Of a DNA stretch of 64,000 bases, positions 2,390 through 13,890 are shown piece by piece. How positions within the stretch are numbered: the stretch's first letter is position 1; each line of letters begins with the position of its first letter. The stretch is from Candidatus Woesebacteria bacterium RBG_16_42_24. GTDB lineage: Bacteria > Patescibacteriota > Microgenomatia > UBA8517. The notes beneath the pieces were generated by a model. That model was not told the origin of the DNA. It searched no databases and saw nothing but the letters and a program-made list of their open reading frames with translations. The stretch spans positions 146,537 through 210,536 of the forward strand of contig MGFX01000006.1 of NCBI GenBank assembly GCA_001792115.1. Direction: 5' to 3'. A program made the translations under genes and the position numbers.

Positions 2390-3157
2390 ATGAAAGCCAT
2401 TAAAATCCTATTTTTATTTCTTCTACTTATAGCAGTCGGGGTAGTAATGTTTAAAATAGGCAACGCAGTTCCTAAAAAAGAAACACCACTCCCCGCTCCT
2501 AAAGTAATGGGGGTATCGGAAGTTGTAGTGGCCGGCGAAGAATATTCCTTTACGACCATTAAAGTGACAGATGCTTCAAGAGTAAAACTTTTGCCGAACT
2601 TTTTGGAACAAAAGACGTCAGAAGAAATTATTAATGAAGGAAGATGTAAAAATTTGGTGAACGGAGGATTCTATTCGGAGAAATTTACACCCATTGGACT
2701 TTTTATAAGTGAGCGAGAAGAAATACAAAAGAGACAGATAAATGCAACATTTAACGGATTTTTTCTAGTAAGCGAAGGAAATATTCCTGAGATTTTAAGA
2801 GAGACTCGGGATGAGGAATATAGAATTGGTCTTCAAGCTGGCCCTATCCTCATTTTGAATTCCACCCCTTTAATACTTAAGCTTAAAGAGGAAGAGCAGG
2901 AGAAAGATAGAAGGGTTATTGTCGCGCTAAATGATAAAGGAGAGACATTTTTTATTGTCGTATTTACACAAAACTCTGTTTTTTCAGGACCGACCCTAGC
3001 ATCTCTACCTGAACTTTTACAAGAAGTTCAAAATTCCTTAGGCGAAAATTTTGTTTCTGCGCTAAACCTGGACGGAGGTGCTGCATCAACTTTTTGGGGT
3101 GAGGGGGCAAGACTCAAAGAGCTATCCCCTATCGGAAGTTACTTCTGTATAAACTAA
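2390..3157 (+). CDS. Phosphodiester glycosidase family protein (DUF2233/NAGPA-like)
   Basis: 255 aa; N-terminal signal anchor; C-terminal LNLDGGAASTFW motif resembles the DUF2233 LDGGGSS signature. Confidence 0.5.
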   Translation: MKAIKILFLFLLLIAVGVVMFKIGNAVPKKETPLPAPKVMGVSEVVVAGEEYSFTTIKVTDASRVKLLPNFLEQKTSEEIINEGRCKNLVNGGFYSEKFTPIGLFISEREEIQKRQINATFNGFFLVSEGNIPEILRETRDEEYRIGLQAGPILILNSTPLILKLKEEEQEKDRRVIVALNDKGETFFIVVFTQNSVFSGPTLASLPELLQEVQNSLGENFVSALNLDGGAASTFWGEGARLKELSPIGSYFCIN

Positions 3158-3160
3158 TAT

Positions 3161-3178
3161 CTCGCGCAGGAAATGGGG
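3161..3178 (+). repeat. Intergenic motif family 1 copy a (CTCGCGCAGGAAATGGGG), abuts stop of the SET gene
   Basis: Core CGCGCAGGAAATGGGG read directly; followed immediately by TTA (reverse-complement stop of 3179..3679). Confidence 0.7.
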
Positions 3179-3679
3179 TTAGTGTTTTCTTGTCAATCTG
3201 TCTATTTCGTTTTCGTGTTCCTTAACAAACCAGTTGTCTAAATATGGCAGATACCTAATCTGTAAATCTTTCGGCAACTTGAAAAAATTGCCTTGATATA
3301 CTCCTCTACAATTTTTACTTCCACAATGACAATCAAAAGTTCCATCGTTATATCCATTTATAGAATAATCATAAGTAATTTCATCGCCTTTTTTAATATC
3401 TTTCATCGCAAAAACTTTCCTTTTACCTTCTATTGTTTTTACATAAGTTGAGGAGTCACAAGAGTGATTGATGTGTCTTTCCGGAGGTTGCATCAAAACT
3501 ATTTTCCCATCGGCTAAATAGTCGCATTCATACTCATGTTGGTATTTTGTTAATTTGGAAGGATCTTTTACTGCGTGCGAGTCATTAATTTCTAAAACAA
3601 TTTCTCCTTTTTTGATGTTTTCTAAAGCATATACGCCTTTTCCTTGAATTTTAGAAACTTTTACTGTAACCCTTTTCAT
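3179..3679 (-). CDS. SET-domain protein (lysine methyltransferase fold) with post-SET Cys cluster
   Basis: 166 aa; NHSCDSS, GDEITYDY and CHCGSKNCRG motifs. Confidence 0.7.
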   Translation of the reverse strand: MKRVTVKVSKIQGKGVYALENIKKGEIVLEINDSHAVKDPSKLTKYQHEYECDYLADGKIVLMQPPERHINHSCDSSTYVKTIEGKRKVFAMKDIKKGDEITYDYSINGYNDGTFDCHCGSKNCRGVYQGNFFKLPKDLQIRYLPYLDNWFVKEHENEIDRLTRKH

Positions 3680-3707
3680 AATTGAAGTATATTTAGAAAT
3701 TTTTAAA

Positions 3708-3728
3708 CACCCGAAGGAAATGGGCCCC
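3708..3728 (+). repeat. Intergenic motif family 1 copy b (CACCCGAAGGAAATGGGCCCC)
   Basis: Degenerate copy of the GCAGGAAATGGGGCC core, 12 nt from the stop of 3741..4070. Confidence 0.55.
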
Positions 3729-3740
3729 TATGTTTGTCTT

Positions 3741-4070
3741 TTAGAACAGCTTGCCACCAAGCGGAACATCTTTGTCTGGTACAACAAGAATTGCTTTTCC
3801 TTCTTCATCAGGAAAACCCAAAGTTAGGACTTCTGATACTGCGGGTCCCATCTGAAAAGGTGGAAGGTTCACAACTCCTGCAATTAACCTTCCTTTAAGT
3901 TCTTCTTTTTTGTAATGAGTGAATTGACCGATTGATTTTTTGACTCCGATTTCCGGGCCAAAATCTACCTCCATCTTGTAACATGGTTTACGCGCCTCGG
4001 GGTAATCCTCAACCTTTACAATTTTTCCCACCCTTATGTCAAGTTTATTGAAGTCGTCAATAGTAGCCAT
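3741..4070 (-). CDS. csaA: tRNA-binding protein (CsaA/Trbp111-like OB-fold, EMAP domain)
   Basis: 109 aa; LDIRVGKIVKVEDYPEARKPCYKMEVDFG is typical of CsaA/YgjH tRNA-binding domains. Confidence 0.7.
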   Translation of the reverse strand: MATIDDFNKLDIRVGKIVKVEDYPEARKPCYKMEVDFGPEIGVKKSIGQFTHYKKEELKGRLIAGVVNLPPFQMGPAVSEVLTLGFPDEEGKAILVVPDKDVPLGGKLF

Positions 4071-4100
4071 TTCGAATATTATAGCAGTTTAATTTTTAGA

Positions 4101-4132
4101 GCCCACGCAGGAAATGGTTTTGAAATTGGGGG
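4101..4132 (+). repeat. Intergenic motif family 1 copy c (GCCCACGCAGGAAATGG...GGGGGC)
   Basis: ACGCAGGAAATGG core with flanking GCCC/GGGC arms; lies in the divergent region upstream of 3741..4070 and 4228..5091. Confidence 0.55.
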
Positions 4133-4227
4133 CCTGCTTACAGGGACGGTCCTTGTAAGCGACTACCAAAGCTGACGGTTGCATATCTGAATTTTTCCTA
4201 AACACCGGAAAAGATATAATAATAACT

Positions 4228-5091
4228 GTGATTATAAAAGGCAAAAAAGAATTTATTGACCAGATAACGAAATTCGACATAAAGACCAAATATGCAGTTG
4301 TAAAACCTAATTGGAAAAGTAACCATGAAGGCGAATTCACCGAGCCAGAAATACTTAGCTGGCTTTTTGAGGCTCTGCCAAACCAGAAAAAGATTGTCGT
4401 AGAAAGCTATACTCCCTGGAGAGGATTAAAATTTATTGAATCCGATTCTCATAAAGGAAAGGGAGTAACTCTTGATGGTGGTAAGGCTCACTGGGATTTC
4501 TACAAGGAGCAAGACCAGCATTTTTTAGGTACAACAGGAATAGGTAACGTATTAAAGAAACACAAAGTAGACTATATAAATATTACAAACGAAGTTTGGG
4601 GTGGAAAATGTATTGGTCCGGAGGTTATAAAAAAGGAAGTTACTGATAAGAAAGAAAGGATTACGTGGGAGGAGCTCTACTCCTATATACCTCAAAAACT
4701 TTATCAAATACGAAAATCGTCAACGCTAATCAGCTTGTCCAAAATTAAAATTGAGGAGGGTATCCAGGCAATCTATATTAGTATGTCAATAAAAAATCTT
4801 TTTGGACTTATTCCCCATCCATCTCGCTGGATACCTTTCCACGGAGAAAATCACGAGTCGGTATCAGAGGTAACGCGCGATATTTACACACTCTACACGC
4901 TTTTATTCGATAAGACCCTCTGGGTTGCTGAAGGCATTAAAACTTTAGTTAGAAATTATTGTGAGCCTCACCAAAAGGTGGTCGAAAATCAAAACTTATT
5001 ATTCGTTGGTCGGAGTGCAAAACAAGTTGATTCTGAAGCCTGCAAAATTCTTGGAATAGACCCCGCTAAGGTTCCCCATCTCCACTTATAA
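4228..5091 (+). CDS. Hypothetical protein, possibly DUF362-like
   Basis: 287 aa; N-terminal YAVVKPNW resembles the DUF362 start; otherwise unrecognised. Confidence 0.3.
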   Translation: MIIKGKKEFIDQITKFDIKTKYAVVKPNWKSNHEGEFTEPEILSWLFEALPNQKKIVVESYTPWRGLKFIESDSHKGKGVTLDGGKAHWDFYKEQDQHFLGTTGIGNVLKKHKVDYINITNEVWGGKCIGPEVIKKEVTDKKERITWEELYSYIPQKLYQIRKSSTLISLSKIKIEEGIQAIYISMSIKNLFGLIPHPSRWIPFHGENHESVSEVTRDIYTLYTLLFDKTLWVAEGIKTLVRNYCEPHQKVVENQNLLFVGRSAKQVDSEACKILGIDPAKVPHLHL

Positions 5092-5113
5092 CTACGTAAG
5101 AAAATTCACACTA

Positions 5114-5129
5114 CTCGCGCAGGAAACGG
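5114..5129 (+). repeat. Intergenic motif family 1 copy d (CTCGCGCAGGAAACGG)
   Basis: Between the convergent stops of 4228..5091 and 5139..5819. Confidence 0.6.
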
Positions 5130-5138
5130 TCTTCGTCT

Positions 5139-5819
5139 TTATGCTAAGACATAATCCGCGTAAGCGATTGTAAGAAGCTCGTCTTCGACTATTTGCATCT
5201 CTGCAAGCCTTATGTCCTCTTCGCTGTACTCTTCATCTGGCCCGAGCTCTAAACGGTCTCTAACCATAAAATCTGTTGGTTTGTAGTGGTCTGGAAACAC
5301 GCGTTTTGCAACAAGAATGTCTTTCAGAAAAGCCGACCATTCCACCGTCTCACTACTTTGGGTCAAACTGCTTTTCTCGATGGAACCAACCTCTTTTGCC
5401 AAGTCTCTAAGTGGTTGAGGAATCCTATGCCACCCTGCGGGCTGCCTGCTATTTCGTATTACCTTTTCACCGCCGCCTAAATCTTTACCAATGAGTATTG
5501 TGGGGAAACCTCTGGCATTAACCGGAGTTAGAACAAACCCGACTGAAATTCCGCCGTCAGGCGTTTTGACGGAGAACTGCTTAGGATCTGTTTGCACAAT
5601 TCGAATTGCAAGGAGTTTGTTATCGATTGTCGGAATGGAGAAAAACTTTTCTCCCAAAACCCAGCCGCCAAACTGCCTAAAGTCGTAGCCCGGCCAGTCG
5701 CTAAAATCCCAATCACTACCTTCAGGTTCGGCTCCGGTAAGATAGTCCTTATTGGACATAATTTCACCAAGGATATCCGAAAACGAAAGCGTGGTTTCCT
5801 CTTCTTCTTTCCCTGCCAT
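5139..5819 (-). CDS. Hypothetical protein
   Basis: 226 aa ORF, acidic N-terminus, no recognisable motif. Confidence 0.4.
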   Translation of the reverse strand: MAGKEEEETTLSFSDILGEIMSNKDYLTGAEPEGSDWDFSDWPGYDFRQFGGWVLGEKFFSIPTIDNKLLAIRIVQTDPKQFSVKTPDGGISVGFVLTPVNARGFPTILIGKDLGGGEKVIRNSRQPAGWHRIPQPLRDLAKEVGSIEKSSLTQSSETVEWSAFLKDILVAKRVFPDHYKPTDFMVRDRLELGPDEEYSEEDIRLAEMQIVEDELLTIAYADYVLA

Positions 5820-5863
5820 ATATTTTTAGAAAAAGTGAGGGAAATTATAACATAAATAATTCG

Positions 5864-5886
5864 GAGGCCGCGCAGGAAATGGGGCC
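5864..5886 (+). repeat. Intergenic motif family 1 copy e (GGAGGCCGCGCAGGAAATGGGGCC), abuts stop of 5887..6165
   Basis: Full core flanked by GGCC arms; TTA stop follows directly. Confidence 0.7.
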
Positions 5887-6165
5887 TTATGCCGAAGATT
5901 GAATTTGGAGTTTCTTTTCAACTTTTGAAATTCTAGGTTCGTGATCTTCATAAACTTTATGAGTTAATATTTCCTGCCCTTCTCTTATTACCTTGAGCTC
6001 GCCCATTACCTCATCCATTTTTCCATAAAATTCATCTTTTGTTGGAAGGTGACTGATATCATCTTTAGTTGCGATTCTGTTTTCAATAGCATCATCCAAC
6101 CGTTCGTCAAATGTAACTTCCATTAAGTCTTTAATCGCCATGAGATCTTTGTTTGTAAGTGCCAT
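5887..6165 (-). CDS. Hypothetical small protein
   Basis: 92 aa, charged and helical, no known motif. Confidence 0.35.
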   Translation of the reverse strand: MALTNKDLMAIKDLMEVTFDERLDDAIENRIATKDDISHLPTKDEFYGKMDEVMGELKVIREGQEILTHKVYEDHEPRISKVEKKLQIQSSA

Positions 6166-6211
6166 AGCGCTATTTAACTATAGAACGCCTATTTCGTCAA
6201 GCAAAAGATAT

Positions 6212-6235
6212 GTGGCCCGCGCAGGAAATGGGGCC
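6212..6235 (+). repeat. Intergenic motif family 1 copy f (GTGGCCCGCGCAGGAAATGGGGCC)
   Basis: Full core with GGCCC/GGGCC arms in the divergent region between 5887..6165 and 6263..7255. Confidence 0.7.
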
Positions 6236-6262
6236 TCAATGTATCCAATTTGGTAAACTTAC

Positions 6263-7255
6263 TTGATGGATAAAAATATAAAGCCGGGTTACAAAAAATA
6301 TTTGGCTTCAATGCACGGAAAGTTTATTACCCCCGATGATGTGATTAGAGAGGTTGTAAAAGAGGGGGCTGGTAATTTGGTATCGAAAAAACGAATTATT
6401 GCAGGCGAAGTGAGTGAGGTATACAACATTATTTTAGAAAACAAAAAGCCCGTAATCCTTCGAATTTCAAGAAGTCCACGGCCAAACTTTCTTCAAGATA
6501 AGTGGGCAATGGAGCAAGTCAAAAAGCTGGGTGTTCCTGTTCCTGAAATCCTACTTATTAAATACCTAATTGTTGGGAATCAAGAACTTTCCTTTTGTTT
6601 AATGGAGAAAGCGGAAGGAAAATCACTCGAGAGGGGGGGCATAAATTTTGAATCGCTTCCCGAAGCAATAAGGAAATCGTATATCTTACAAGCTGGAGAA
6701 ATTCTATCCAAAATTCACTCCATTGAAACCCTAGGTTTTGGATGGATTATTGGAGAGGGAAAGGCGGAATACAACACCTCTGAAGAAATTATTGACGAAC
6801 TGTTAAAAAGAAAAGAGAGGATATATAAGGTCGCTGATGCTCAAAAGTTTGATCGACGGCTTGTCGACGAAGCCCTGGACATTGTAGGCAGATTCAGGGA
6901 AAGATATTCTCACATTAACCCCCACCTAAACCATGCAGACTACGGGCACAAGCACTTTATGGTAAAGAAGGGAAAAATTGTGGCTGTTTTGGATTGGGGT
7001 GGAGTACGAAGCGATTCACCAATATATGATTTCGCTAATTGGGATTATTGGTACGGGCATTACATTCCGACCAATTGGTTAAAAGAAGGCTACCAGAACA
7101 AACAACTATTTGACGAGAATTTTGAAGACACCCTTCACGTTATGAGAATCATGAAAGGGATAGAAATAGCCGATTGGTACGAGTCGCAAAACTATGGAGA
7201 GGCAGTTGAAAAAGCACTTGCCAAGTTGACCGATGACTTGAATTACTTCAAGTGA
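6263..7255 (+). CDS. Phosphotransferase-family protein (APH/choline-kinase-like fold)
   Basis: 330 aa; LNHADYGHKHFMV (Brenner-like HxD motif) and VLDWGG (DxG) arrangement of the APH/kinase-like family. Confidence 0.55.
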   Translation: MMDKNIKPGYKKYLASMHGKFITPDDVIREVVKEGAGNLVSKKRIIAGEVSEVYNIILENKKPVILRISRSPRPNFLQDKWAMEQVKKLGVPVPEILLIKYLIVGNQELSFCLMEKAEGKSLERGGINFESLPEAIRKSYILQAGEILSKIHSIETLGFGWIIGEGKAEYNTSEEIIDELLKRKERIYKVADAQKFDRRLVDEALDIVGRFRERYSHINPHLNHADYGHKHFMVKKGKIVAVLDWGGVRSDSPIYDFANWDYWYGHYIPTNWLKEGYQNKQLFDENFEDTLHVMRIMKGIEIADWYESQNYGEAVEKALAKLTDDLNYFK

Positions 7256-7276
7256 TTATTAGCATTTAAGCGCTTA

Positions 7277-7295
7277 CAGCGAAGGAAGTGGGACC
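7277..7295 (+). repeat. Intergenic motif family 1 copy g, degenerate (CAGCGAAGGAAGTGGGACC)
   Basis: Matches copy b (CGAAGGAAaTGGGcCC); sits 2 nt from the RidA stop. Confidence 0.45.
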
Positions 7296-7297
7296 AT

Positions 7298-7648
7298 TTA
7301 GCCTTTTGAAGCTATCAAACTAATTTCAATTTTCGCACCCATTGGCAGCTCCTTCACACATACAGTTTCTCTGGCTGGATAAGGTTCCGAAAAATAACTT
7401 CCATAAATTTCGTTAACATCCCCGTATAAGGACATGTCTGTTACATAAATCGTGGTTTTAACAACGTCGGCAAAAGTCACACCCGCTTTTTCAAGTACCC
7501 CTTTCAAATTTTTCATTACCTGATGGGTTTGCTCTTTTATACTTCCCTCCAAAAGTTTTCCCTCCGGAGTCAAATAAACCTGACCTGATGTAAAGACAAA
7601 ATTGTCTTTTGTAACGGAGGGAGAAAAAGGGAGTTTTGGGTGACCCAT
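7298..7648 (-). CDS. ridA: RidA/YjgF-family protein (reactive intermediate deaminase)
   Basis: 116 aa; C-terminal PARETVCVKELPMGAKIEI matches the RidA signature. Confidence 0.8.
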   Translation of the reverse strand: MGHPKLPFSPSVTKDNFVFTSGQVYLTPEGKLLEGSIKEQTHQVMKNLKGVLEKAGVTFADVVKTTIYVTDMSLYGDVNEIYGSYFSEPYPARETVCVKELPMGAKIEISLIASKG

Positions 7649-7670
7649 ACGAGCTGATTATATCAAAACC

Positions 7671-7689
7671 TGTGTGCAGGAAGTAGGTT
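7671..7689 (+). repeat. Intergenic motif family 1 copy h, degenerate (TGTGTGCAGGAAGTAGGTT)
   Basis: 13/18 match to copy a; just 3' of the stop of 7697..8242. Confidence 0.4.
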
Positions 7690-7696
7690 CTTGTAA

Positions 7697-8242
7697 TTAT
7701 TCCAGAAGATATTCCCAGCCTGGTTGCCAAGCTTTTTTCTTTCTCCAATCCTCGGCAAAAGCTTGCTTCCAAGTTTTTCCTTTTATAAGTACATCCAAAG
7801 CCAGCTGAGGTGCTTTATGGGCAACAATGGCGACATGTTTTCCATCGTAATTTTCTTTTAAGAAATCCAAAAAATCCTGAATTCTTTTCTCAACATCTTC
7901 GTAGCTTTCACCATTGGGAAACCTTTTTGTAATATTTTCTTCTTGCTTCGGCTCGACAATCTTCGATGGTTTGCCGTTTAAATCCCCATAATTACACTCA
8001 CGTAATCTCTTATCGTAAATAATTTCAACAATCCCGCCAAAAGTGAGATTTGCTGAATCTGCCGATCTTTTCAAATCAGAACAGAAGACAACATCAAATT
8101 TCTTGCCCTTTACTTGCTTTCTCAGCTCTTTCGACTCCCGTACTCCTTTTTCAGAAAGTTCTGCATCCGACCAACCAGAAGATATCCCCGTCTCATTATC
8201 GGTAGTTGTCCCATGAACAAAATATGTAATTTTTACAGGCAT
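7697..8242 (-). CDS. Histidine phosphatase family protein (phosphoglycerate-mutase-like)
   Basis: 181 aa; N-terminal FVHGTTTDNE (RHG-like) and SDLKRS motifs. Confidence 0.6.
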   Translation of the reverse strand: MPVKITYFVHGTTTDNETGISSGWSDAELSEKGVRESKELRKQVKGKKFDVVFCSDLKRSADSANLTFGGIVEIIYDKRLRECNYGDLNGKPSKIVEPKQEENITKRFPNGESYEDVEKRIQDFLDFLKENYDGKHVAIVAHKAPQLALDVLIKGKTWKQAFAEDWRKKKAWQPGWEYLLE

Positions 8243-8261
8243 AAATAAATTTATGACATCC

Positions 8262-8412
8262 TCCGCGGACTAAAAGTCCGCGGTTTCCCTTCAAAGGAGG
8301 ATGATACTTCGACAAGCTCAGTATCATTCTGAGTATTATCGAAGAATGACATATCAGTTTCAATTCATCCCCGATTTAATCGGGGTGTTCTTGAAATCTG
8401 TTATAAACTTGA
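8262..8412 (+). repeat. Structured repeat element R, full copy 2 (nested hairpins + conserved core)
   Basis: CATCCTCC-[GCGGAC...GTCCGC]-GGAGGATG nested hairpin, then the CTTCGA...TCGAAG hairpin, then core ATGACATATCAG...CCCCGATTtaaTCGGGG...TGTTATAAA. Confidence 0.6.
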
Positions 8413-8421
8413 TTTATTCTA

Positions 8422-8450
8422 CTTCGGGGCTAATTTGAAGACAAATTATT
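8422..8450 (+). repeat. Intergenic motif family 2 copy a (CTTCGGGGCTAATTTGAAGACAAATTATT), abuts stop of the HAD gene
   Basis: Read directly; ends 1 nt before the CTA (TAG) stop of 8452..9102. Confidence 0.7.
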
Positions 8451-8451
8451 T

Positions 8452-9102
8452 CTACAATATTTTCTTAATTTCTTTTAATTCTTTAATCATTTTGAAGGCT
8501 AGTGACTCCAGCTCGGGGTGGGGATCTTTGTTGACGGCAATGCCGTAGTGAAGTTCTCGGAAAAGTGCTATGTCGCTATCACCGTCTCCGATTACGGAAC
8601 ATCTCTCTTTCTCTATATTATTTCTTGAAATAAATTCGTTAAATTGCTCAAGCTTTTTTGCCGCCTGGTCAGCATAATAATTAAGATCCACTAGGTTGCC
8701 CTCTTTATCCCAAATTAAATCTGTATTTGCATACCAGTGGGGTATACCCAGCCTTTCTGCAATGGCCTCGACATAAAGGTCAACAGATCCGGAAATTAAA
8801 CACAGTCGGTAGAACTTTTTAAGATACTCTACAATTTCAACTACATCCTTTTTAAATTTCCAAGATCTAAACATTTTTTCCATATATTTTTTATTCGCGT
8901 TTCGCGTACTTCTCCAAAGACCAATTAATTCTTTCTTTGCGTCAAGGTAAGACAACTTACCTTTTCTGAAACGTTCTTCAAATATATCAACATGGGTAGC
9001 ACGGGAAGCTCCCAACCCTTCGGTGATTTCGTACCAGGAAATGGTTTCAGTCAAAGTCCCGTCTATATCTAAAATAACTGTATCAATTTTTTCTTTTAGC
9101 AT
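8452..9102 (-). CDS. HAD-superfamily hydrolase (HAD-IB / phosphoserine-phosphatase-like)
   Basis: 216 aa; ILDIDGTLT motif I and IGDGDSDIALF motif IV. Confidence 0.75.
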   Translation of the reverse strand: MLKEKIDTVILDIDGTLTETISWYEITEGLGASRATHVDIFEERFRKGKLSYLDAKKELIGLWRSTRNANKKYMEKMFRSWKFKKDVVEIVEYLKKFYRLCLISGSVDLYVEAIAERLGIPHWYANTDLIWDKEGNLVDLNYYADQAAKKLEQFNEFISRNNIEKERCSVIGDGDSDIALFRELHYGIAVNKDPHPELESLAFKMIKELKEIKKIL

Positions 9103-9138
9103 TCTTTTTCAAAATTTTATCACGATCCTGAGTTTTAC

Positions 9139-9175
9139 CGAAGGACTCCGAAGCTACTTTGAAGACAAATTATTT
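9139..9175 (+). repeat. Intergenic motif family 2 copy b (CCGAAGGACTCCGAAGCTACTTTGAAGACAAATTATT), overlaps stop of the VOC gene
   Basis: GAAGACAAATTA runs into the TTA stop of 9170..9589. Confidence 0.7.
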
Positions 9176-9589
9176 TATGGATTCTTCGAATTTTTTGTGA
9201 GGAGAGTCCGGCTGAGCTTGGACCATTTCTAATTTATTTCCCTCTGGGTCAAAAAGAAATGCTGTAAGATTATTGTCTCGCAGTTTTAAAATTTCAGAAT
9301 CAAAAGCCACCCCCCTCCCCTCCATTTCTTTCTTGGTATTGGCTAGATCATCAACAGTGAAGCTTATGTGACGAACTCCCAGACTTTTTGTATCATCGAA
9401 GACTGGTCTTTTTTCGCCGCCTAAGCAAAGTTCTAAATATTGTCCTTCGGAGATATGAAGAAAGACTATTCTTAAAGACCCGTCGTCATTCGTAATTCGG
9501 AAAGCCTCGGTCAATCCCAATCCCCTGCAATAATAATCCAGCATCTTATCAATGTCTTTTACTCTTATAGCGACGTGTCCAAATCTCAT
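9170..9589 (-). CDS. VOC-family protein (glyoxalase/bleomycin-resistance/dioxygenase fold)
   Basis: 139 aa; MRFGHVAIRVKDIDKMLDYYCRGLGL N-terminal VOC pattern. Confidence 0.7.
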   Translation of the reverse strand: MRFGHVAIRVKDIDKMLDYYCRGLGLTEAFRITNDDGSLRIVFLHISEGQYLELCLGGEKRPVFDDTKSLGVRHISFTVDDLANTKKEMEGRGVAFDSEILKLRDNNLTAFLFDPEGNKLEMVQAQPDSPHKKFEESIK

Positions 9590-9605
9590 AGATTAATTCT
9601 AAGTT

Positions 9606-9630
9606 GGAACCGATCTCAAGACAAATTTTA
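9606..9630 (+). repeat. Intergenic motif family 2 copy c (GGAACCGATCTCAAGACAAATTTTA)
   Basis: AAGACAAATT core overlapping the TTA stop of 9628..10083. Confidence 0.55.
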
Positions 9631-10083
9631 AAATCTGCTTTCGAGCCAGAGCTTGGTGAAGAAGATTGTAAAAATTATAGAAACTACAGTGACACACTGC
9701 CAGATTATTTGGTGTATAAACCAAACAGAATCATTATGGAAAATGGAATGAAACGGAAGCTTTTCGGGCGGATTTCTGTTTATAGTGGAGAATTGCTGGT
9801 TAAACCAATAAATAGTTTCACCCAGACTTCTAACCACCCAAAAAACGGAGATAATTAGAAGGAATAAATACCAGTCGTTTAGCAAATAAGAAACCAGCGA
9901 AGAAGCAATCCAAAATGGGCCAAAAACGACCGCATCTCCCCAAGCGATAATTCCTAATAGATTAAGGTTTGGAGTAAGGCCGTAAGCGTTTTTGCGATAT
10001 TTACATTCATAATATCCCTTCACAAATACCCCAAGATTTACCAGAGCGTAGGCCCAAATAACGAGTTGCTGCCAATTCTCCAT
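9628..10083 (-). CDS. Hypothetical integral membrane protein
   Basis: 151 aa with 4 predicted hydrophobic helices; no known motif. Confidence 0.45.
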   Translation of the reverse strand: MENWQQLVIWAYALVNLGVFVKGYYECKYRKNAYGLTPNLNLLGIIAWGDAVVFGPFWIASSLVSYLLNDWYLFLLIISVFWVVRSLGETIYWFNQQFSTINRNPPEKLPFHSIFHNDSVWFIHQIIWQCVTVVSIIFTIFFTKLWLESRF

Positions 10084-10095
10084 ATCTGAATTGTA

Positions 10096-10124
10096 CCTCG
10101 GAGCTAATTTGAAGACAAATTATT
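10096..10124 (+). repeat. Intergenic motif family 2 copy d (CCTCGGAGCTAATTTGAAGACAAATTATT), abuts stop of 10123..10488
   Basis: Near-identical to copy a; ends at the TTA stop. Confidence 0.7.
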
Positions 10125-10488
10125 AAGTCTGATTTGCGGTTTCTTTATAAGCAGAAAATAAATGGTTTATAGCTTGCTTAGCCATACGTTTATCTTGAAT
10201 TAACTCCCACATAACAATAGCTCCTTGGAGACCAAGTAATAATTTGTATAATGAATACGGGACGGTCTGCGGATTACCCATTATCTCCTGTCTTGCCTGT
10301 GCCCAACTGATAGCGATTTCCCTGGGTGATATATGCTTATCCGCTATTCTTTCGACAAGGACTCTACAAACATCGTAAGGGTATCCACTAGCCAGTGAAC
10401 TATGCTTCCTGAGACGGTGCATTAACTCGCCAGAAGATGGCATATTTATTACCTCTTCCACCTCTCCGACCCTTTTTGCTTCAATCAT
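10123..10488 (-). CDS. Hypothetical protein
   Basis: 121 aa ORF without recognisable motifs. Confidence 0.4.
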   Translation of the reverse strand: MIEAKRVGEVEEVINMPSSGELMHRLRKHSSLASGYPYDVCRVLVERIADKHISPREIAISWAQARQEIMGNPQTVPYSLYKLLLGLQGAIVMWELIQDKRMAKQAINHLFSAYKETANQT

Positions 10489-10520
10489 GAAAAGAATTAT
10501 ATCACTATTTAGAGTGAATT

Positions 10521-10772
10521 CTATTTTTTGCCATCGAGACGGGCAACTGGTTTTACCCCCTTAAAAGTGCCGTTTAAAAATTGAGTTACTAGCCGGTTTA
10601 CTTTTTCTCTATATAACCAGGCGTAAGCGGAACTAAGTGTTACCTTGGATGAATGTAAAGAGCTTCCGGAAATTAGACGTACATCTTCAACGGTAGGATG
10701 GATACCTCTTTTTATGGTTTGGACAACCAAAATAATATCATCTCGAGATGGTAAATGACTTCTCTCGTGCAT
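10521..10772 (-). CDS. Hypothetical protein (start moved to internal ATG, MHERSHLP...)
   Basis: ORF track begins at a TTG; an in-frame ATG at 10770-10772 is the more plausible start. Confidence 0.35.
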   Translation of the reverse strand: MHERSHLPSRDDIILVVQTIKRGIHPTVEDVRLISGSSLHSSKVTLSSAYAWLYREKVNRLVTQFLNGTFKGVKPVARLDGKK

Positions 10773-10799
10773 AATTTTTGCGGGCAATGGCTAATTCTA

Positions 10800-10828
10800 C
10801 TCCGAAGCTAATTTGAAGACAATAATTT
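10800..10828 (+). repeat. Intergenic motif family 2 copy e (CTCCGAAGCTAATTTGAAGACAATAATTT)
   Basis: In the divergent region between 10521..10787 and 10903..11595. Confidence 0.65.
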
Positions 10829-10902
10829 AGCTTAAGTCTAAAATTGGTTAAGTAGGCTTCACTAGACATTTAACAATCTAAGGTAAATAATTGCTCTGAA
10901 AT

Positions 10903-11595
10903 ATGGAACTAAAAATACACGATTTTCAATTATCAATTCTGCGGGAGCTTCTTTTTAGACCCAACGCGCGCTTTCGGGATTTAAAGAAAGTAGATATTAC
11001 GAATGACCACTTTACTTTTCATTTAAAACAGCTGGTTAAGGAAGGATTGGTTATAAAACAAAACAAGGTTTACAGTCTTACAGACGAAGGAAAAGAGTTT
11101 GCAAATAGAATGGATACTGAGGCACTTAGGATTGAGAGACAGGGGAAAATAGCAGTCGGGCTTCATGCGGTAAGACTTAGAAATGGTAAGACGGAACACC
11201 TTGTACATCAAAGGCTTAAAGAACCCTTTTATGGCTGGTACGGATCCCAGAGCGGAAAAGTAAGGTGGGGAGAAAATCCTTTGGACTGCGCTAAAAGAGA
11301 ATTTAGAGAGGAAACCGGGCTTACAGGAAAATTTACACTTAAGGGAATTGTTCACTACCACCACTTTCATCAAGACGGAAGGTTGCTTGAAGATAAATAT
11401 TTTTGGATTTATAAGGTGGAAAACACAAAGGGAGATTTTATGGAAGAGGTCCCAGAGGGTAAAAATATATGGATAAGTGAGGCCAAATATCGAAAACTGA
11501 AAAACGTTTTTGCAACTTTTGACGAAGTTCGCGAGGTATTAAATAGTAAAAAGCTACTTTATTTAGATAGAGCAAGATTTGTTAAGAGCTACTAA
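10903..11595 (+). CDS. Winged-helix / NUDIX hydrolase fusion protein
   Basis: 230 aa; Nudix box GKVRWGENPLDCAKREFREETGL (GX5EX7REUXEEXGU); N-terminal HTH-like region. Confidence 0.7.
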   Translation: MELKIHDFQLSILRELLFRPNARFRDLKKVDITNDHFTFHLKQLVKEGLVIKQNKVYSLTDEGKEFANRMDTEALRIERQGKIAVGLHAVRLRNGKTEHLVHQRLKEPFYGWYGSQSGKVRWGENPLDCAKREFREETGLTGKFTLKGIVHYHHFHQDGRLLEDKYFWIYKVENTKGDFMEEVPEGKNIWISEAKYRKLKNVFATFDEVREVLNSKKLLYLDRARFVKSY

Positions 11596-11624
11596 AAAGC
11601 TCTCGGTGAGGTTTTAGGTCTTTT

Positions 11625-11650
11625 CCCCGAAGCTACTTTGAGGACAACCC
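11625..11650 (+). repeat. Intergenic motif family 2 copy f, degenerate (CCCCGAAGCTACTTTGAGGACAACCC)
   Basis: CCGAAGCTACTTTGA-GGACAA matches copy b; abuts the CTA stop of hppA. Confidence 0.55.
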
Positions 11651-13890
11651 TAGCTGGTGACCGAGACTCGGTATTTTTTGCTCTGCCAGATTCCCCAGAC
11701 GAAAATCGCGATAAGAACGGCAATTGCCACTTTTGCCCCAAAAGTTCCGTGGTACTGGACGATAACCGGCGCGGCAATAAGGCTGACCAGGTTCACAACT
11801 TTAATCATAGGGTTAAGCGCAGGTCCGGCAGTATCCTTTAGTGGATCCCCTACCGTATCTCCCTCAACCGAAGCCTTGTGGGCGTCAGATCCCTTACCTC
11901 CAAAGTGGCCGTCCTCGATAAACTTCTTGGCATTATCGAGTGCGCCTCCGGCAACAGACATATAAACTGCTAAAAGTTGTCCCGTGAGTATTACTCCCGC
12001 AAGAAATGCTCCCAAAGCCTCAACTTCGAAAATAAGTCCCACAAGCAGTGGCAGGGAAACCGAAATAGCCACCAAACTTATTAAGTCTTTTTGGGCTGCG
12101 GCGGTTGTGATACTCACAACCTTTTCGTATTCGGGAGTTTTGGTCCCTTCCATTACCCCAGGAACCTTAAACTGTTTTCTTACTTCTTCAACCACCTTAA
12201 TGGCTGCTCTTGCAACAGCCTTAATGGCAATTGCGGCAAAAAGAAGGGGCAAGGCTCCCCCCAGCAAAAATCCAATTACGGTTGGAAGAGAAGAAATTCG
12301 AATTGATTCAAGAACCTGAACTCCTATTCTTTCCTGTACGATCCCCACGTCTGTTATGAATGAAAAGAAAAGGGCGGTTGCCGCAATAACCGCGGAAGCA
12401 ATTGCCAGCTGTTTGGTTATCGCTTTGGTGGTATTTCCAACAGAGTCCAAGTCCGCCATTATTTTTGCTGCGCTTTCGGGAACCCCAGCCATCTCCCCTA
12501 TTCCGTTGGCATTATCTGCAATTGGTCCGAATGCATCCATCGCTACGTTATTTCCGGTCAGGGACAACATTCCAATTCCGATCATCGCTACCCCGTATAA
12601 CATGTAAATGGGCGGCATTCCCCAGTAGATAAGAAGGCTTGAGGCAAGGGCCGCGCAAATTACGAATACGCTCCAGACCGAAGATTCCATACCAACCCCG
12701 AGACCCGAAAGGATTGTGGTTGCACTTCCGGTTTTGGTTGACTCCGCAATCTCAAGAACGGGCCGCCTCTTGTAAGAAGTGAAGTAAGAGGTAAGAGGAT
12801 TAAATGCAACCGCCAGGGCGATTCCGACGGCATTAAGAAGAGCTAGTTTCCACTCCCCCGCATAAAACATTGCAAAGGCAAAAGCCGAAAGAACCGTAAA
12901 AACACTTGAGAGTTCATAGCTTCTAAACATGGCTTCTTCCGCGTCTTTAGCACGCAGCCATTTCGCTGGAAATTTTTCCCAAATGGGAACGGCTAGCGTT
13001 CCGATGATTGAGGAAACAACTCCAATTGCGCGGACCACTAAGGGGTAAACTATCCAGAAAGACTGACCCGTTAAGTGATAAAGAACAAGCCCTAAAATTA
13101 AAGAAGAAACAATTGTTACTTCGTAAGACTCGAAGATATCGGCTGCCATTCCGGCGCAGTCCCCGACGTTATCCCCGACAAGGTCTGCTACAACCCCCGC
13201 ATTTCTCGGATCATCCTCGGGTAAGTTTTTCTCGACTTTACCCACAAGGTCTGCTCCCATGTCAGCGGCCTTGGTATAAATTCCTCCCCCTATTCTCATA
13301 AAAAGGGCAACGAGTGTTCCTCCGAAACCAAAACCCAGAAGTGCGTCGGGCGCAGCTTTGCCAAAAACCATAAATATAATTGTTCCCCCGAGAAGCCCGA
13401 GTCCGTCCGTAAGCATTCCGGTAAATGTTCCCGCCCTGTAGGCTGTAGTTAAGGCGCCGTTATAATCCCCTTTTACTGCCTTTGCGGTGACCCTCACATT
13501 TCCCTCAATGGCAACCCTCATTCCGAGTTGTCCGACAAGAGTGGAGAAAGTTGCACCAACAATAAAGGCGATAGTTCGGCCTAAAGCGACTATCAAAGTT
13601 GCATTGTCGCCAAATCTGGCAACTGCTTCGCTAGACGGCGGAACAACGTAGACGCTTAAGAAGAGGATCACAATTAATGCAAGAAGCACAAGAGTAATTG
13701 TTTTTAGTTGTTTTCTAAGGTACCCCTCCGCTCCCCGCTTAATAGCTTTCCAGACGGTTTGCATTTTTTCGGTGCCCTTATCCTCTGAAGAAGTTTTCTT
13801 CCAAAGCCAGAGGGCATAGATAAGGGCCGAAAAGGCAACGCCTATTACTCCCCAAATCATCATTTGCTCAAAAGCGGCTAATTCATTCAT
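11650..13890 (-). CDS. hppA: Membrane-bound K+-dependent H+/Na+-translocating pyrophosphatase
   Basis: 746 aa; multiple TM helices; GDNVGDCAGMAADIFESYEV and DLVGKVE motifs diagnostic of V-type PPases. Confidence 0.93.
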   Translation of the reverse strand: MNELAAFEQMMIWGVIGVAFSALIYALWLWKKTSSEDKGTEKMQTVWKAIKRGAEGYLRKQLKTITLVLLALIVILFLSVYVVPPSSEAVARFGDNATLIVALGRTIAFIVGATFSTLVGQLGMRVAIEGNVRVTAKAVKGDYNGALTTAYRAGTFTGMLTDGLGLLGGTIIFMVFGKAAPDALLGFGFGGTLVALFMRIGGGIYTKAADMGADLVGKVEKNLPEDDPRNAGVVADLVGDNVGDCAGMAADIFESYEVTIVSSLILGLVLYHLTGQSFWIVYPLVVRAIGVVSSIIGTLAVPIWEKFPAKWLRAKDAEEAMFRSYELSSVFTVLSAFAFAMFYAGEWKLALLNAVGIALAVAFNPLTSYFTSYKRRPVLEIAESTKTGSATTILSGLGVGMESSVWSVFVICAALASSLLIYWGMPPIYMLYGVAMIGIGMLSLTGNNVAMDAFGPIADNANGIGEMAGVPESAAKIMADLDSVGNTTKAITKQLAIASAVIAATALFFSFITDVGIVQERIGVQVLESIRISSLPTVIGFLLGGALPLLFAAIAIKAVARAAIKVVEEVRKQFKVPGVMEGTKTPEYEKVVSITTAAAQKDLISLVAISVSLPLLVGLIFEVEALGAFLAGVILTGQLLAVYMSVAGGALDNAKKFIEDGHFGGKGSDAHKASVEGDTVGDPLKDTAGPALNPMIKVVNLVSLIAAPVIVQYHGTFGAKVAIAVLIAIFVWGIWQSKKYRVSVTS

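Follow-up and report, generated by a model that had tools for sequence, protein, structure and literature searches.

How does a groundwater bacterium with a tiny genome, a member of Candidatus Woesebacteria, come to carry a row of small genes in which every gap holds the same short sequence? The motif, here called M1 (CGCGCAGGAAATGG; on the minus strand CCATTTCCTGCGCG), occurs in a 64,000-nt stretch of DNA analysed as a whole (the window), where eight co-oriented copies lie between 3158 and 7696, one in each of eight successive gene gaps. Is it a signal for the neighbouring genes, a repeat in its own right or the seam along which genes are joined? The sequence-only reading of this DNA had placed eight copies there, all intergenic and in one orientation, and each was found where it had been placed. 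Its distances also hold: for six copies the stop codon of a minus-strand gene is 2–17 nt away (at most 12 nt in five cases), and copies 3 and 6 sit in divergent gaps. The gene identities it gave (SET, CsaA/tRNA_bind, DUF362, APH, RidA and His_Phos_1) agree with precomputed Pfam and NCBIfam matches. The copies belong to an island limited by an H+-pyrophosphatase (H+-PPase) gene on one side and a NAGPA-family gene on the other, both conserved, with a variable interval between them:

2390..3157, plus strand: NAGPA-family gene, conserved island border, followed by the anchor M1
3163..3176, minus strand: M1 copy 1, the anchor (CCATTTCCTGCGCG), in a 21-nt convergent gap between the NAGPA and SET stops; 25.5 bits
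3179..3679, minus strand: SET-domain protein, 166 aa (PF00856)
3710..3723, minus strand: M1 copy 2, degenerate (CCATTTCCTTCGGG), gap between CsaA stop and SET start
3741..4070, minus strand: CsaA/tRNA-binding protein, 109 aa (precomputed Pfam/NCBIfam matches)
4104..4117, minus strand: M1 copy 3 (CCATTTCCTGCGTG), CsaA/DUF362 divergent gap; 26.3 bits
4228..5091, plus strand: DUF362 protein, 287 aa, reversed relative to most cassettes
5116..5129, minus strand: M1 copy 4, G variant (CCGTTTCCTGCGCG), DUF362/h226 convergent gap; 18.2 bits
5139..5819, minus strand: h226, hypothetical, without Pfam match, found again in other M1-punctuated arrays
5869..5882, minus strand: M1 copy 5, perfect, gap between h92 stop and h226 promoter; 25.9 bits
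5887..6165, minus strand: h92, hypothetical protein
6218..6231, minus strand: M1 copy 6, perfect, APH/h92 divergent gap; 27.5 bits
6263..7255, plus strand: APH-family kinase, reversed
7278..7291, minus strand: M1 copy 7, degenerate (CCACTTCCTTCGCT), RidA/APH convergent gap
7298..7648, minus strand: RidA
7673..7686, minus strand: M1 copy 8 (CTACTTCCTGCACA), gap between His-phosphatase stop and RidA promoter; 15.9 bits
7697..8242, minus strand: His-phosphatase (His_Phos_1), with M1 on its stop side and a second motif, M2, plus a structured leader on its start side
11650..13890, minus strand: H+-translocating pyrophosphatase, the other conserved island border

The order in the window is thus RidA-M1-APH-M1-h92-M1-h226-M1-DUF362-M1-CsaA-M1-SET-M1-NAGPA, with six genes between RidA and NAGPA. 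From copy to copy the spacing is 349–1060 nt, four of the eight M1-bearing gaps measure only 21–48 nt, GC content is heterogeneous among the cassettes (0.32–0.46) and about 30% of these are reversed. The orientation of M1 stays constant across tandem, convergent and divergent gene pairs. Its core, CCATTTCCTGC, is often lengthened to (A)AMCCATTTCCTGCGCGG and reads the same way as most cassette genes; information content is at its maximum at this asymmetric centre and falls outward, a profile that fits an exchange region needing a match between partner sites. Copies 2 and 7 have 2–3 core mismatches, yet they stand in the expected gaps.

Could this be a chance pattern, or a promoter or terminator used throughout the species? 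Only the intergenic location speaks for it. The 18-mer with up to three mismatches gave 4 matches against 0.00 expected (100 shuffles). A weight matrix trained exclusively with sites of other organisms and then run over the 64 kb returned M1 copies as its top six matches (15.9–27.5 bits); the seventh, at 12.5 bits, falls within coding sequence, and the other ~59 kb of the window have no comparable copy, nor is there a strong copy outside the island. No M1 copy was called as an intrinsic terminator (hairpin and U-run are missing, fold stability shows no excess, and some copies lie in divergent gaps) or as a sigma-70 promoter, the distance to a -10 element being variable. Such a general signal, or chance, is barely conceivable.

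Does M1 form a structure? The suggestion that GGCC...GGCC arms close a hairpin does not hold. The arms exist at some copies, not as a general feature, no stem covaries, fold z-scores lie between -1.1 and +1.3, and matched and swapped flanks give equal stem length (permutation P=0.31). An inverted partner within 160 nt accompanies 3/8 copies (9–20 nt, 70–100% complementarity, on inconsistent sides). M1 matches none of the curated covariance models of Rfam 15 and lacks the clear dyad symmetry that tyrosine and serine recombinases usually need. A dif site was also considered and rejected, the core being asymmetric and flanked only by weak AACCC...GGGTT sequences. Another candidate is a small selfish repeat of REP/BIME or MITE type that has colonised the spaces between the island's genes by insertion, since M1 is short, intergenic, often found just after stop codons and in some copies provided with GGCC arms. 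This is improbable: M1 is not palindromic, folds with z-scores of about 0, keeps strictly to one orientation and to the island, and marks the points at which arrays begin and cease to be homologous (see below), which repeat insertion would not bring about; the window has no Y1/RAYT transposase.

What occupies this interval in related genomes? Between the H+-PPase and NAGPA genes the window has 14 genes, whereas sister species have one or two: two in L051 (AAA_15 and RidA), two in L054 and one in L059. Next to NAGPA, L062, L063, L065/L071 and L070 carry further different gene sets, so that on comparative grounds the interval is a hotspot. The anchor M1 persists beside the NAGPA stop, 0–5 nt past it, in the window and in L051 (9075), L063 (1274) and L065 (1898). 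In L051, from a sister species, the RidA|NAGPA gap holds a single M1, an ancestral-type copy. M1 was also expected at the AAA_15|RidA junction of L051 and is absent, an example of junctions without it. Within the species the array is identical across ten contigs from different samples, so that turnover is slow; this, like the junctions without M1, counts against the cassette mechanism proposed below.

Do the genes travel as units? Homologues of h226 (68–76% identity) occur on three unrelated contigs (L072, L073 and L074) among different small genes, with RelB/YafQ and Gp49/HTH pairs, a Ser hydrolase, an SDR and a NUDIX protein as neighbours. In these arrays nearly all inter-cassette gaps hold a co-oriented M1, which never separates the two genes of a toxin–antitoxin pair. 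In a three-way alignment of the h226 cassette, DNA homology begins at the upstream M1 (copy 5 in the window) and ends at the downstream one; beyond these copies the sequences are unrelated. The variants of M1 point the same way: CCGTTTCC follows h226 in both the window and L072, and CACTTCC follows RidA in both the window and L051, so that variants of the core (its left half) co-segregate with the upstream gene. RidA followed by M1 recurs in four contexts (window, L051, L072 and L196), the last being an array of RidA-M1-HAD-M1-h194-M1-AadA-like with a large serine recombinase at its edge. Individual cassette genes have extended -10 and sigma-70-like sequences in front of them, which are conserved together with the gene, though there are no expression data. 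The sequence-only reading had offered a cassette array with a shared site, and the relatives bear this out: genes between M1 copies vary as discrete units, a cassette gene recurs and homology has its limits at M1. That reading would have fallen if M1 had turned up in coding or random places, had no conserved position relative to gene ends or had been the canonical terminator. None of this came about: outside the island gaps the window, coding sequence included, is free of M1; in relatives too the motif lies beside gene ends, and it is not a general terminator.

How could such an array be built? We lean, if only slightly, towards M1 being the junction site for mobile cassettes, which in a Woesebacteria subclade would form a sedentary, integron-like array, with site-specific exchange carried out by a recombinase encoded elsewhere. 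The cassette structure is demonstrated; recombination chemistry and recombinase are inferred, and so are site-specific, enzyme-catalysed exchange, a circular intermediate, the position of the crossover and the identity of the enzyme. A cassette would consist of one gene or one toxin–antitoxin pair with its own promoter, and would begin with the right part of one M1 and end with the left part of the M1 that follows. In its free form, probably a circle with one M1, it would recombine conservatively with a resident M1, the first of which would be the copy just past the stop of the conserved NAGPA gene. Every insertion would add one gene and one co-oriented M1, and recombination between two M1 copies would then excise or reshuffle cassettes. 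The crossover would fall inside the conserved core, roughly within TTCCTGCG, and the recombinase gene would lie elsewhere in the genome.

Is a dedicated enzyme needed at all? M1 could instead be a cis-acting element in the flank of each accessory gene (a site for an insulating or silencing protein, or a 3'-end signal), with shuffling left to natural transformation and homologous or short-homology recombination, for which M1 is only shared microhomology. This explanation, unlikely but not to be dismissed, draws on the position of M1 0–16 nt past the stop in most forward-oriented cassette genes, on the stability of the array within the species, on the full type IV pilus/competence-like cluster encoded in the window and on the lack of a dedicated recombinase linked to M1. 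There is a precedent too, as transformation-driven cassette shuffling is described for chromosomal integrons (PMC12614218). A cis-acting role is hard to square with an orientation that stays fixed whatever the arrangement of the flanking genes, with copy 6, which has a divergent promoter-like sequence on either side and is not needed there by any transcript, with the lack of any hairpin, U-run, terminator call or promoter call, and with the absence of M1 from ~59 kb of core genes. RecA-dependent exchange usually needs identity far longer than the 14 nt shared here, yet the breakpoints fall exactly at M1.

Where, then, would the recombinase of the proposed cassette array be? No recombinase is encoded in the 64 kb of the window, and none could be tied to M1. 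Among tyrosine recombinases the nearest, a generic Xer, is encoded ~4 kb past the left end of the window, and its gene is syntenic even in lineages without M1; this Xer-type protein scores 128.8 bits on the integron-integrase model TIGR02249, against a cut-off of 265. The large serine recombinase of L196 (Resolvase+Recombinase+Zn_ribbon domains) is a single case, on a contig that ends in a 114-nt perfect inverted repeat resembling a fold-back artefact. Neither an excised circle nor an empty site was seen, read data not being available.

M1 is not the only motif of the island. Between the His-phosphatase gene and the H+-PPase lies a second array, punctuated differently:

8416..11647, minus strand: second array, seven genes, six of seven gaps with the motif M2 (TTGTCTTCAAATTAGCTYCGGAG-TAnAAT)
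8429, 9153, 9596-9624 (weak), 10103, 10807 and 11632: M2 copies

The h88|h121 gap of this array has no M2. M2 meets a feature of sigma-70 promoters (-35/-10 hexamers whose distance from the gene start is fixed), unlike M1.

What would all this mean? The textbook example of a device that captures and stockpiles single genes is the integron, and in candidate-phyla-radiation bacteria, with their minimal genomes, the acquisition of accessory genes is poorly understood. Very small genomes had no complete integrons in one survey (PMC4889954). The wider claim, which could as well fail as stand, is that of an undescribed mode of gene capture parallel to integrons, with self-promoted single-gene or toxin–antitoxin cassettes, a short non-palindromic site of 11–18 nt and a non-IntI recombinase encoded elsewhere; M2, as a second type of site that bears a promoter, may serve the adjoining array. 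If true, this would be a second cassette system, structurally unrelated to integrons and built on a simple double-stranded site, and cassette-array architecture would have evolved more than once. Gene flow among uncultivated groundwater bacteria could then also be approached in concrete terms, and the short site, together with its recombinase, could be turned into a new tool for recombination.

How does the array compare with known systems? REP/BIME elements are palindromic, dispersed through the genome in both orientations and associated with RAYT transposases; M1 resembles them as a short intergenic repeat often near stop codons, but is neither palindromic nor dispersed nor present in both orientations. 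A dif or pdif site has 28 nt, with two ~11-nt inverted arms and a 6-nt spacer, and pdif orientation alternates. Xer/dif elements (IMEX and the pdif modules of Acinetobacter plasmids) share with the M1 array small modules, short recombination sites and reliance on a host recombinase encoded elsewhere, and near the M1 island an Xer-type enzyme is the sole recombinase seen. In contrast to dif/pdif, M1 lacks inverted arms and is always direct, and Xer is equally present in lineages without M1. Staphylococcal SCC islands use the ccr large serine recombinases, have a direct repeat of 15–18 nt at each junction and are anchored at the 3' end of rlmH/orfX. The M1 array likewise has a short direct repeat at every junction and its first site past the 3' end of a conserved gene, and in L196, one doubtful contig, it abuts a large serine recombinase gene. 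The units differ, being single genes of 0.35–1.1 kb with no recombinase inside, against multi-gene SCC elements of tens of kb.

The closest parallel is with integrons. Their attC sites, of ~55–140 nt with R''(RYYYAAC)...R'(GTTRRRY) boxes, fold as single strands; IntI, a tyrosine recombinase with an extra domain, is required in a complete integron and not in a CALIN, a cluster of attC sites without an integrase; and the cassettes are mostly promoterless, expressed from the common promoter Pc. Integrons and CALINs (PMC4889954) share with the M1 array mostly single-gene cassettes, a co-oriented site just past the stop codon, content that differs in close relatives, cassettes common to several arrays and toxin–antitoxin cassettes, and a CALIN also has no integrase beside it. 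Might M1 be an atypical attC, so divergent that a true integron or CALIN goes unrecognised here? Co-oriented sites after stop codons, single-gene cassettes of 0.35–1.1 kb and toxin–antitoxin cassettes would suit this, but it is highly improbable given four gaps of 21–48 nt (below any attC length), inverted partners at only three of eight copies and on inconsistent sides, no R''/R' boxes at M1 copies, no IntI, a nearby recombinase far below the integron-integrase cut-off and cassettes with promoter-like sequences of their own. This assessment rests on gap length, inverted partners, folding and flank permutation, not on an attC covariance-model score. An asymmetric site of 11–18 nt thus stands against an imperfect palindrome of 55–140 nt with R''/L''-L'/R' boxes; there is no folded-strand signature and no IntI, about 30% of the cassettes are reversed, they appear to carry their own promoters, and the host belongs to the candidate phyla radiation. 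The array behaves in the manner of an integron, but without any structural hallmark of the known ones.

M1, the short oriented motif at the junctions of the single-gene cassette array (about 3158-7696), occurs exactly once in each of the eight gaps from the NAGPA-family gene to the His-phosphatase gene, as seen by reading the region 2800-8200 directly. The sequence-only reading had described eight gene gaps with one co-oriented motif copy apiece, and direct reading, a core search and a weight matrix all confirm this. Allowing up to two mismatches, the core GCAGGAAATGG is found on the + strand at all eight positions (3166, 3713, 4107, 5119, 5872, 6221, 7281 and 7676), two of them (3713 and 7281) with a degenerate copy. 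The genes that it separates are as follows.

Genes of the M1 array and its borders
2390-3157, + strand, NAGPA
3179-3679, - strand, SET
3741-4070, - strand, CsaA
4228-5091, + strand, DUF362
5139-5819, - strand, hypothetical h226
5887-6165, - strand, hypothetical h92
6263-7255, + strand, APH
7298-7648, - strand, RidA
7697-8242, - strand, His-phosphatase

How specific is M1 to these gaps? The M1 18-mer with at most three mismatches gives four matches versus zero expected. With a weight matrix trained solely on M1 sites of other organisms, the best six matches in the 64 kb are six of the eight copies (15.9-27.5 bits), and the seventh-ranked match, at 12.5 bits, lies within a gene. An M1-like sequence, GAAACCATTTCCTGG, within the coding region of a HAD hydrolase (9029-9049, 8.5 bits) is probably due to chance. 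On the minus strand, along which the H+-pyrophosphatase (H+-PPase) gene and the majority of island genes run, M1 is CCATTTCCTGCGCG. In that reading every forward gene has M1 0-16 nt past its stop codon, ahead of the promoter-like sequence of the forward gene that comes next. Convergent and divergent gaps carry M1 too, in unchanged orientation, and the spacing from copy to copy is 349-1060 nt. At 0.39, the GC content of the whole island (3158-11649) is below the 0.43 of the remaining sequence (11650-64000), and it is also more heterogeneous, with individual genes at 0.32-0.46.

What kind of element is M1? The logo of 22 sites concentrates the information in CCATTTCCTGC, with a weaker GCGG on the right and (G)AAC on the left. 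That M1 is a general expression signal is unlikely: promoter and terminator predictions called zero M1 copies, and an Rfam search gave no match for it. GGCC hairpin arms had been suggested from the sequence, and they did not hold up as a consistent feature in the stem comparison or the RNA folds. The best stems of matched flanks average 3.05 bp versus 2.92 for swapped ones (permutation, P=0.31), and 20 RNA folds have z-scores of only -1.08 to +1.33, so a hairpin, RNA or single-strand structure is rejected. A REP-like repeat is likewise an unlikely identity for M1. The same grade applies to an atypical attC, which cannot fit because four of the gaps span merely 21-48 nt; a search within 160 nt of M1 found no consistent inverted partner, only three weak ones on inconsistent sides, and an attC-like partner was rejected.

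The identical array is present in ten contigs of the source species from different samples. In relatives the frame is kept (H+-PPase ... NAGPA-DUF2207-ATP-cone-GyrA) and the interior differs. A DUF2207 alignment scan of metagenomes yielded only nine loci, three of them informative (L062, L063 and L065).

Genes that relatives (loci on other contigs) have between the frame genes or next to them, with DUF2207 identity
L051, 82%, AAA_15 ATPase and RidA
L062, 82%, another gene ahead of RidA
L063, 83%, membrane protein and Asp/Glu racemase
L065 / L071, 82%, hydrolase, hypothetical, racemase
L070, 77%, HIT and TrpR-like gene
L054 / L059, 61-63%, PurA, with or without one additional gene

With its 14 genes in the window, the H+-PPase/NAGPA interval is a hotspot of gene content. 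The only M1 of L051 is in the RidA/NAGPA gap, and one copy of M2, the second motif family, lies past the H+-PPase stop there; in the window six genes lie between RidA and NAGPA, with M1 in each of the seven gaps. M1 is also beside the NAGPA stop in L063 and L065, next to a different gene, and is absent from L054 and L059. Of note, two Woesebacteria GWA1_42_12 assemblies (L057 and L058) break at or just before NAGPA, the island edge, which may reflect strain heterogeneity there.

Do the same cassettes recur in unrelated arrays? Homologues of h226 form 13 clusters, every one on short contigs; metagenome contigs, many of them short, are the evidence base throughout. Reading covered three of these contigs, from other environments: L072 and L073 (76% identity each) and L074 (68%). 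Here h226 has RelB/YafQ and Gp49/HTH pairs, a Ser hydrolase, SDR, NUDIX and hypotheticals as neighbours; nearly every inter-cassette gap holds M1, co-oriented irrespective of gene strand, and M1 never separates the partners of a toxin-antitoxin pair. In a three-way alignment of the h226 cassette, homology runs from the upstream to the downstream M1, covering a conserved promoter-like part and the gene, and the sequences are unrelated beyond the downstream M1. Together with the frame loci, these contigs bear out the expectation that genes between motifs vary as discrete units. Left-half variants of M1 go with the upstream gene (CCGTTTCC after h226 in both the window and L072, CACTTCC after RidA in both the window and L051) and the right flank goes with the downstream gene, which puts the point of exchange within the conserved core. 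M1 follows RidA in four contexts (window, L051, L072 and L196). L195, with an h226 homologue at 46% identity, has neither M1 nor M2, so M1 is limited to a subclade.

With moderate confidence, M1 is inferred to be a site of conservative site-specific recombination. The array would have started from a single M1 site beyond the NAGPA stop, every insertion would add a gene and one M1 copy, and the crossover would fall inside the conserved core, roughly within CCATTTCCTGCG. Could M1 instead be an element that accessory genes carry for protein binding or insulation, with shuffling by transformation and short-homology recombination? This is the main rival, possible but less likely, given that the orientation of M1 is constant, that it is found between divergent promoters, that it is confined to islands (the window was scanned, the rest of the source genome was not) and that breakpoints are exact at M1. 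The recombination site is favoured, although the data cannot fully separate the two.

Which enzyme would act on such a site? A search for a co-occurring recombinase had been proposed at first. The window has no recombinase genes, its remaining genes having core functions; some 4 kb past its left end there is a gene for a tyrosine recombinase. This gene is of the Xer type (it scores 228 bits with the archaeal XerA model and 129 bits with the integron-integrase model, whose cut-off is 265) and syntenic in lineages both with and without M1; as a generic Xer it was rejected as the linked enzyme. An M1 array in L196 has a gene for a large serine recombinase (7485-9041) as its direct neighbour; the end of that contig has a perfect inverted repeat of 114 nt (7346-7459 / 8871-8984) and could be an assembly fold-back. 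No enzyme is thus assigned to M1. L196 also has a third and longer repeat, of about 130 nt, which fills three gaps of its array (1-174, 802-1070 and 1854-1997), with an inverted copy at 7262-7351 beside the serine recombinase gene; within this repeat an M1-like CCGCATTTTTTGCGCGCG precedes a hairpin, the stem of which varies between copies with pairing kept. In a sister species the Xer-type gene is split by an intein with LAGLIDADG (L051, 15600-17819; also L052 and L057), giving a protein of 739 aa versus 299-318 aa in other lineages.

M2 (TTGTCTTCAAATTAGCTYCGGAG-TAnAAT, minus strand) punctuates the next seven genes (7697-11649), except for the gap between the hypothetical genes h88 and h121.

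M2 copies, minus-strand reading
8429-8444
9153-9168
9596-9624 (weak)
10103-10118
10807-10822
11632-11647

M2 begins 1-7 nt past the preceding stop and scores as a sigma-70-like promoter on the minus strand; just 6-10 nt separate its -10 element from the start codon, a hint of leaderless mRNAs. In the window as in L051, L054 and L059, a copy lies directly past the H+-PPase stop, irrespective of the next gene, and M2 is also present in the arrays of L063, L065, L071 and L074. M2 may be a second type of cassette junction. Unlike all neighbouring gaps, the h88/h121 gap (10488-10521, 32 nt) has neither motif; by analogy with the toxin-antitoxin pairs of L072 and L074, the two genes may form one cassette. 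The start of the His-phosphatase gene is separated from an M2 promoter-like site by a 173-nt leader (8243-8415, minus strand) with three hairpins in its fold (MFE -61.3 kcal/mol versus -35.2 for shuffles, z = -7.1), a candidate cis-regulatory RNA for which Rfam gave only a sub-threshold HgcC match (21 bits, E 0.15).

Is the system known elsewhere? In a collection of one genome per species, which does not include the source genome, the exact 18-mer gave 40 single matches and no arrays; these are in high-GC genomes and due to chance, and the exact sequence is not widespread. Two scans of viral contigs and a weight-matrix rescan gave only chance matches, in high-GC contigs. The earlier statement that no described system has this motif stands, as far as a literature search on integrons and cassettes in these bacteria goes. 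In its workings the array is like an integron or CALIN, but it fails their defining attC structure and IntI; it also resembles SCC-type tandem accretion, but lacks the multi-gene units and ccr genes of SCC.
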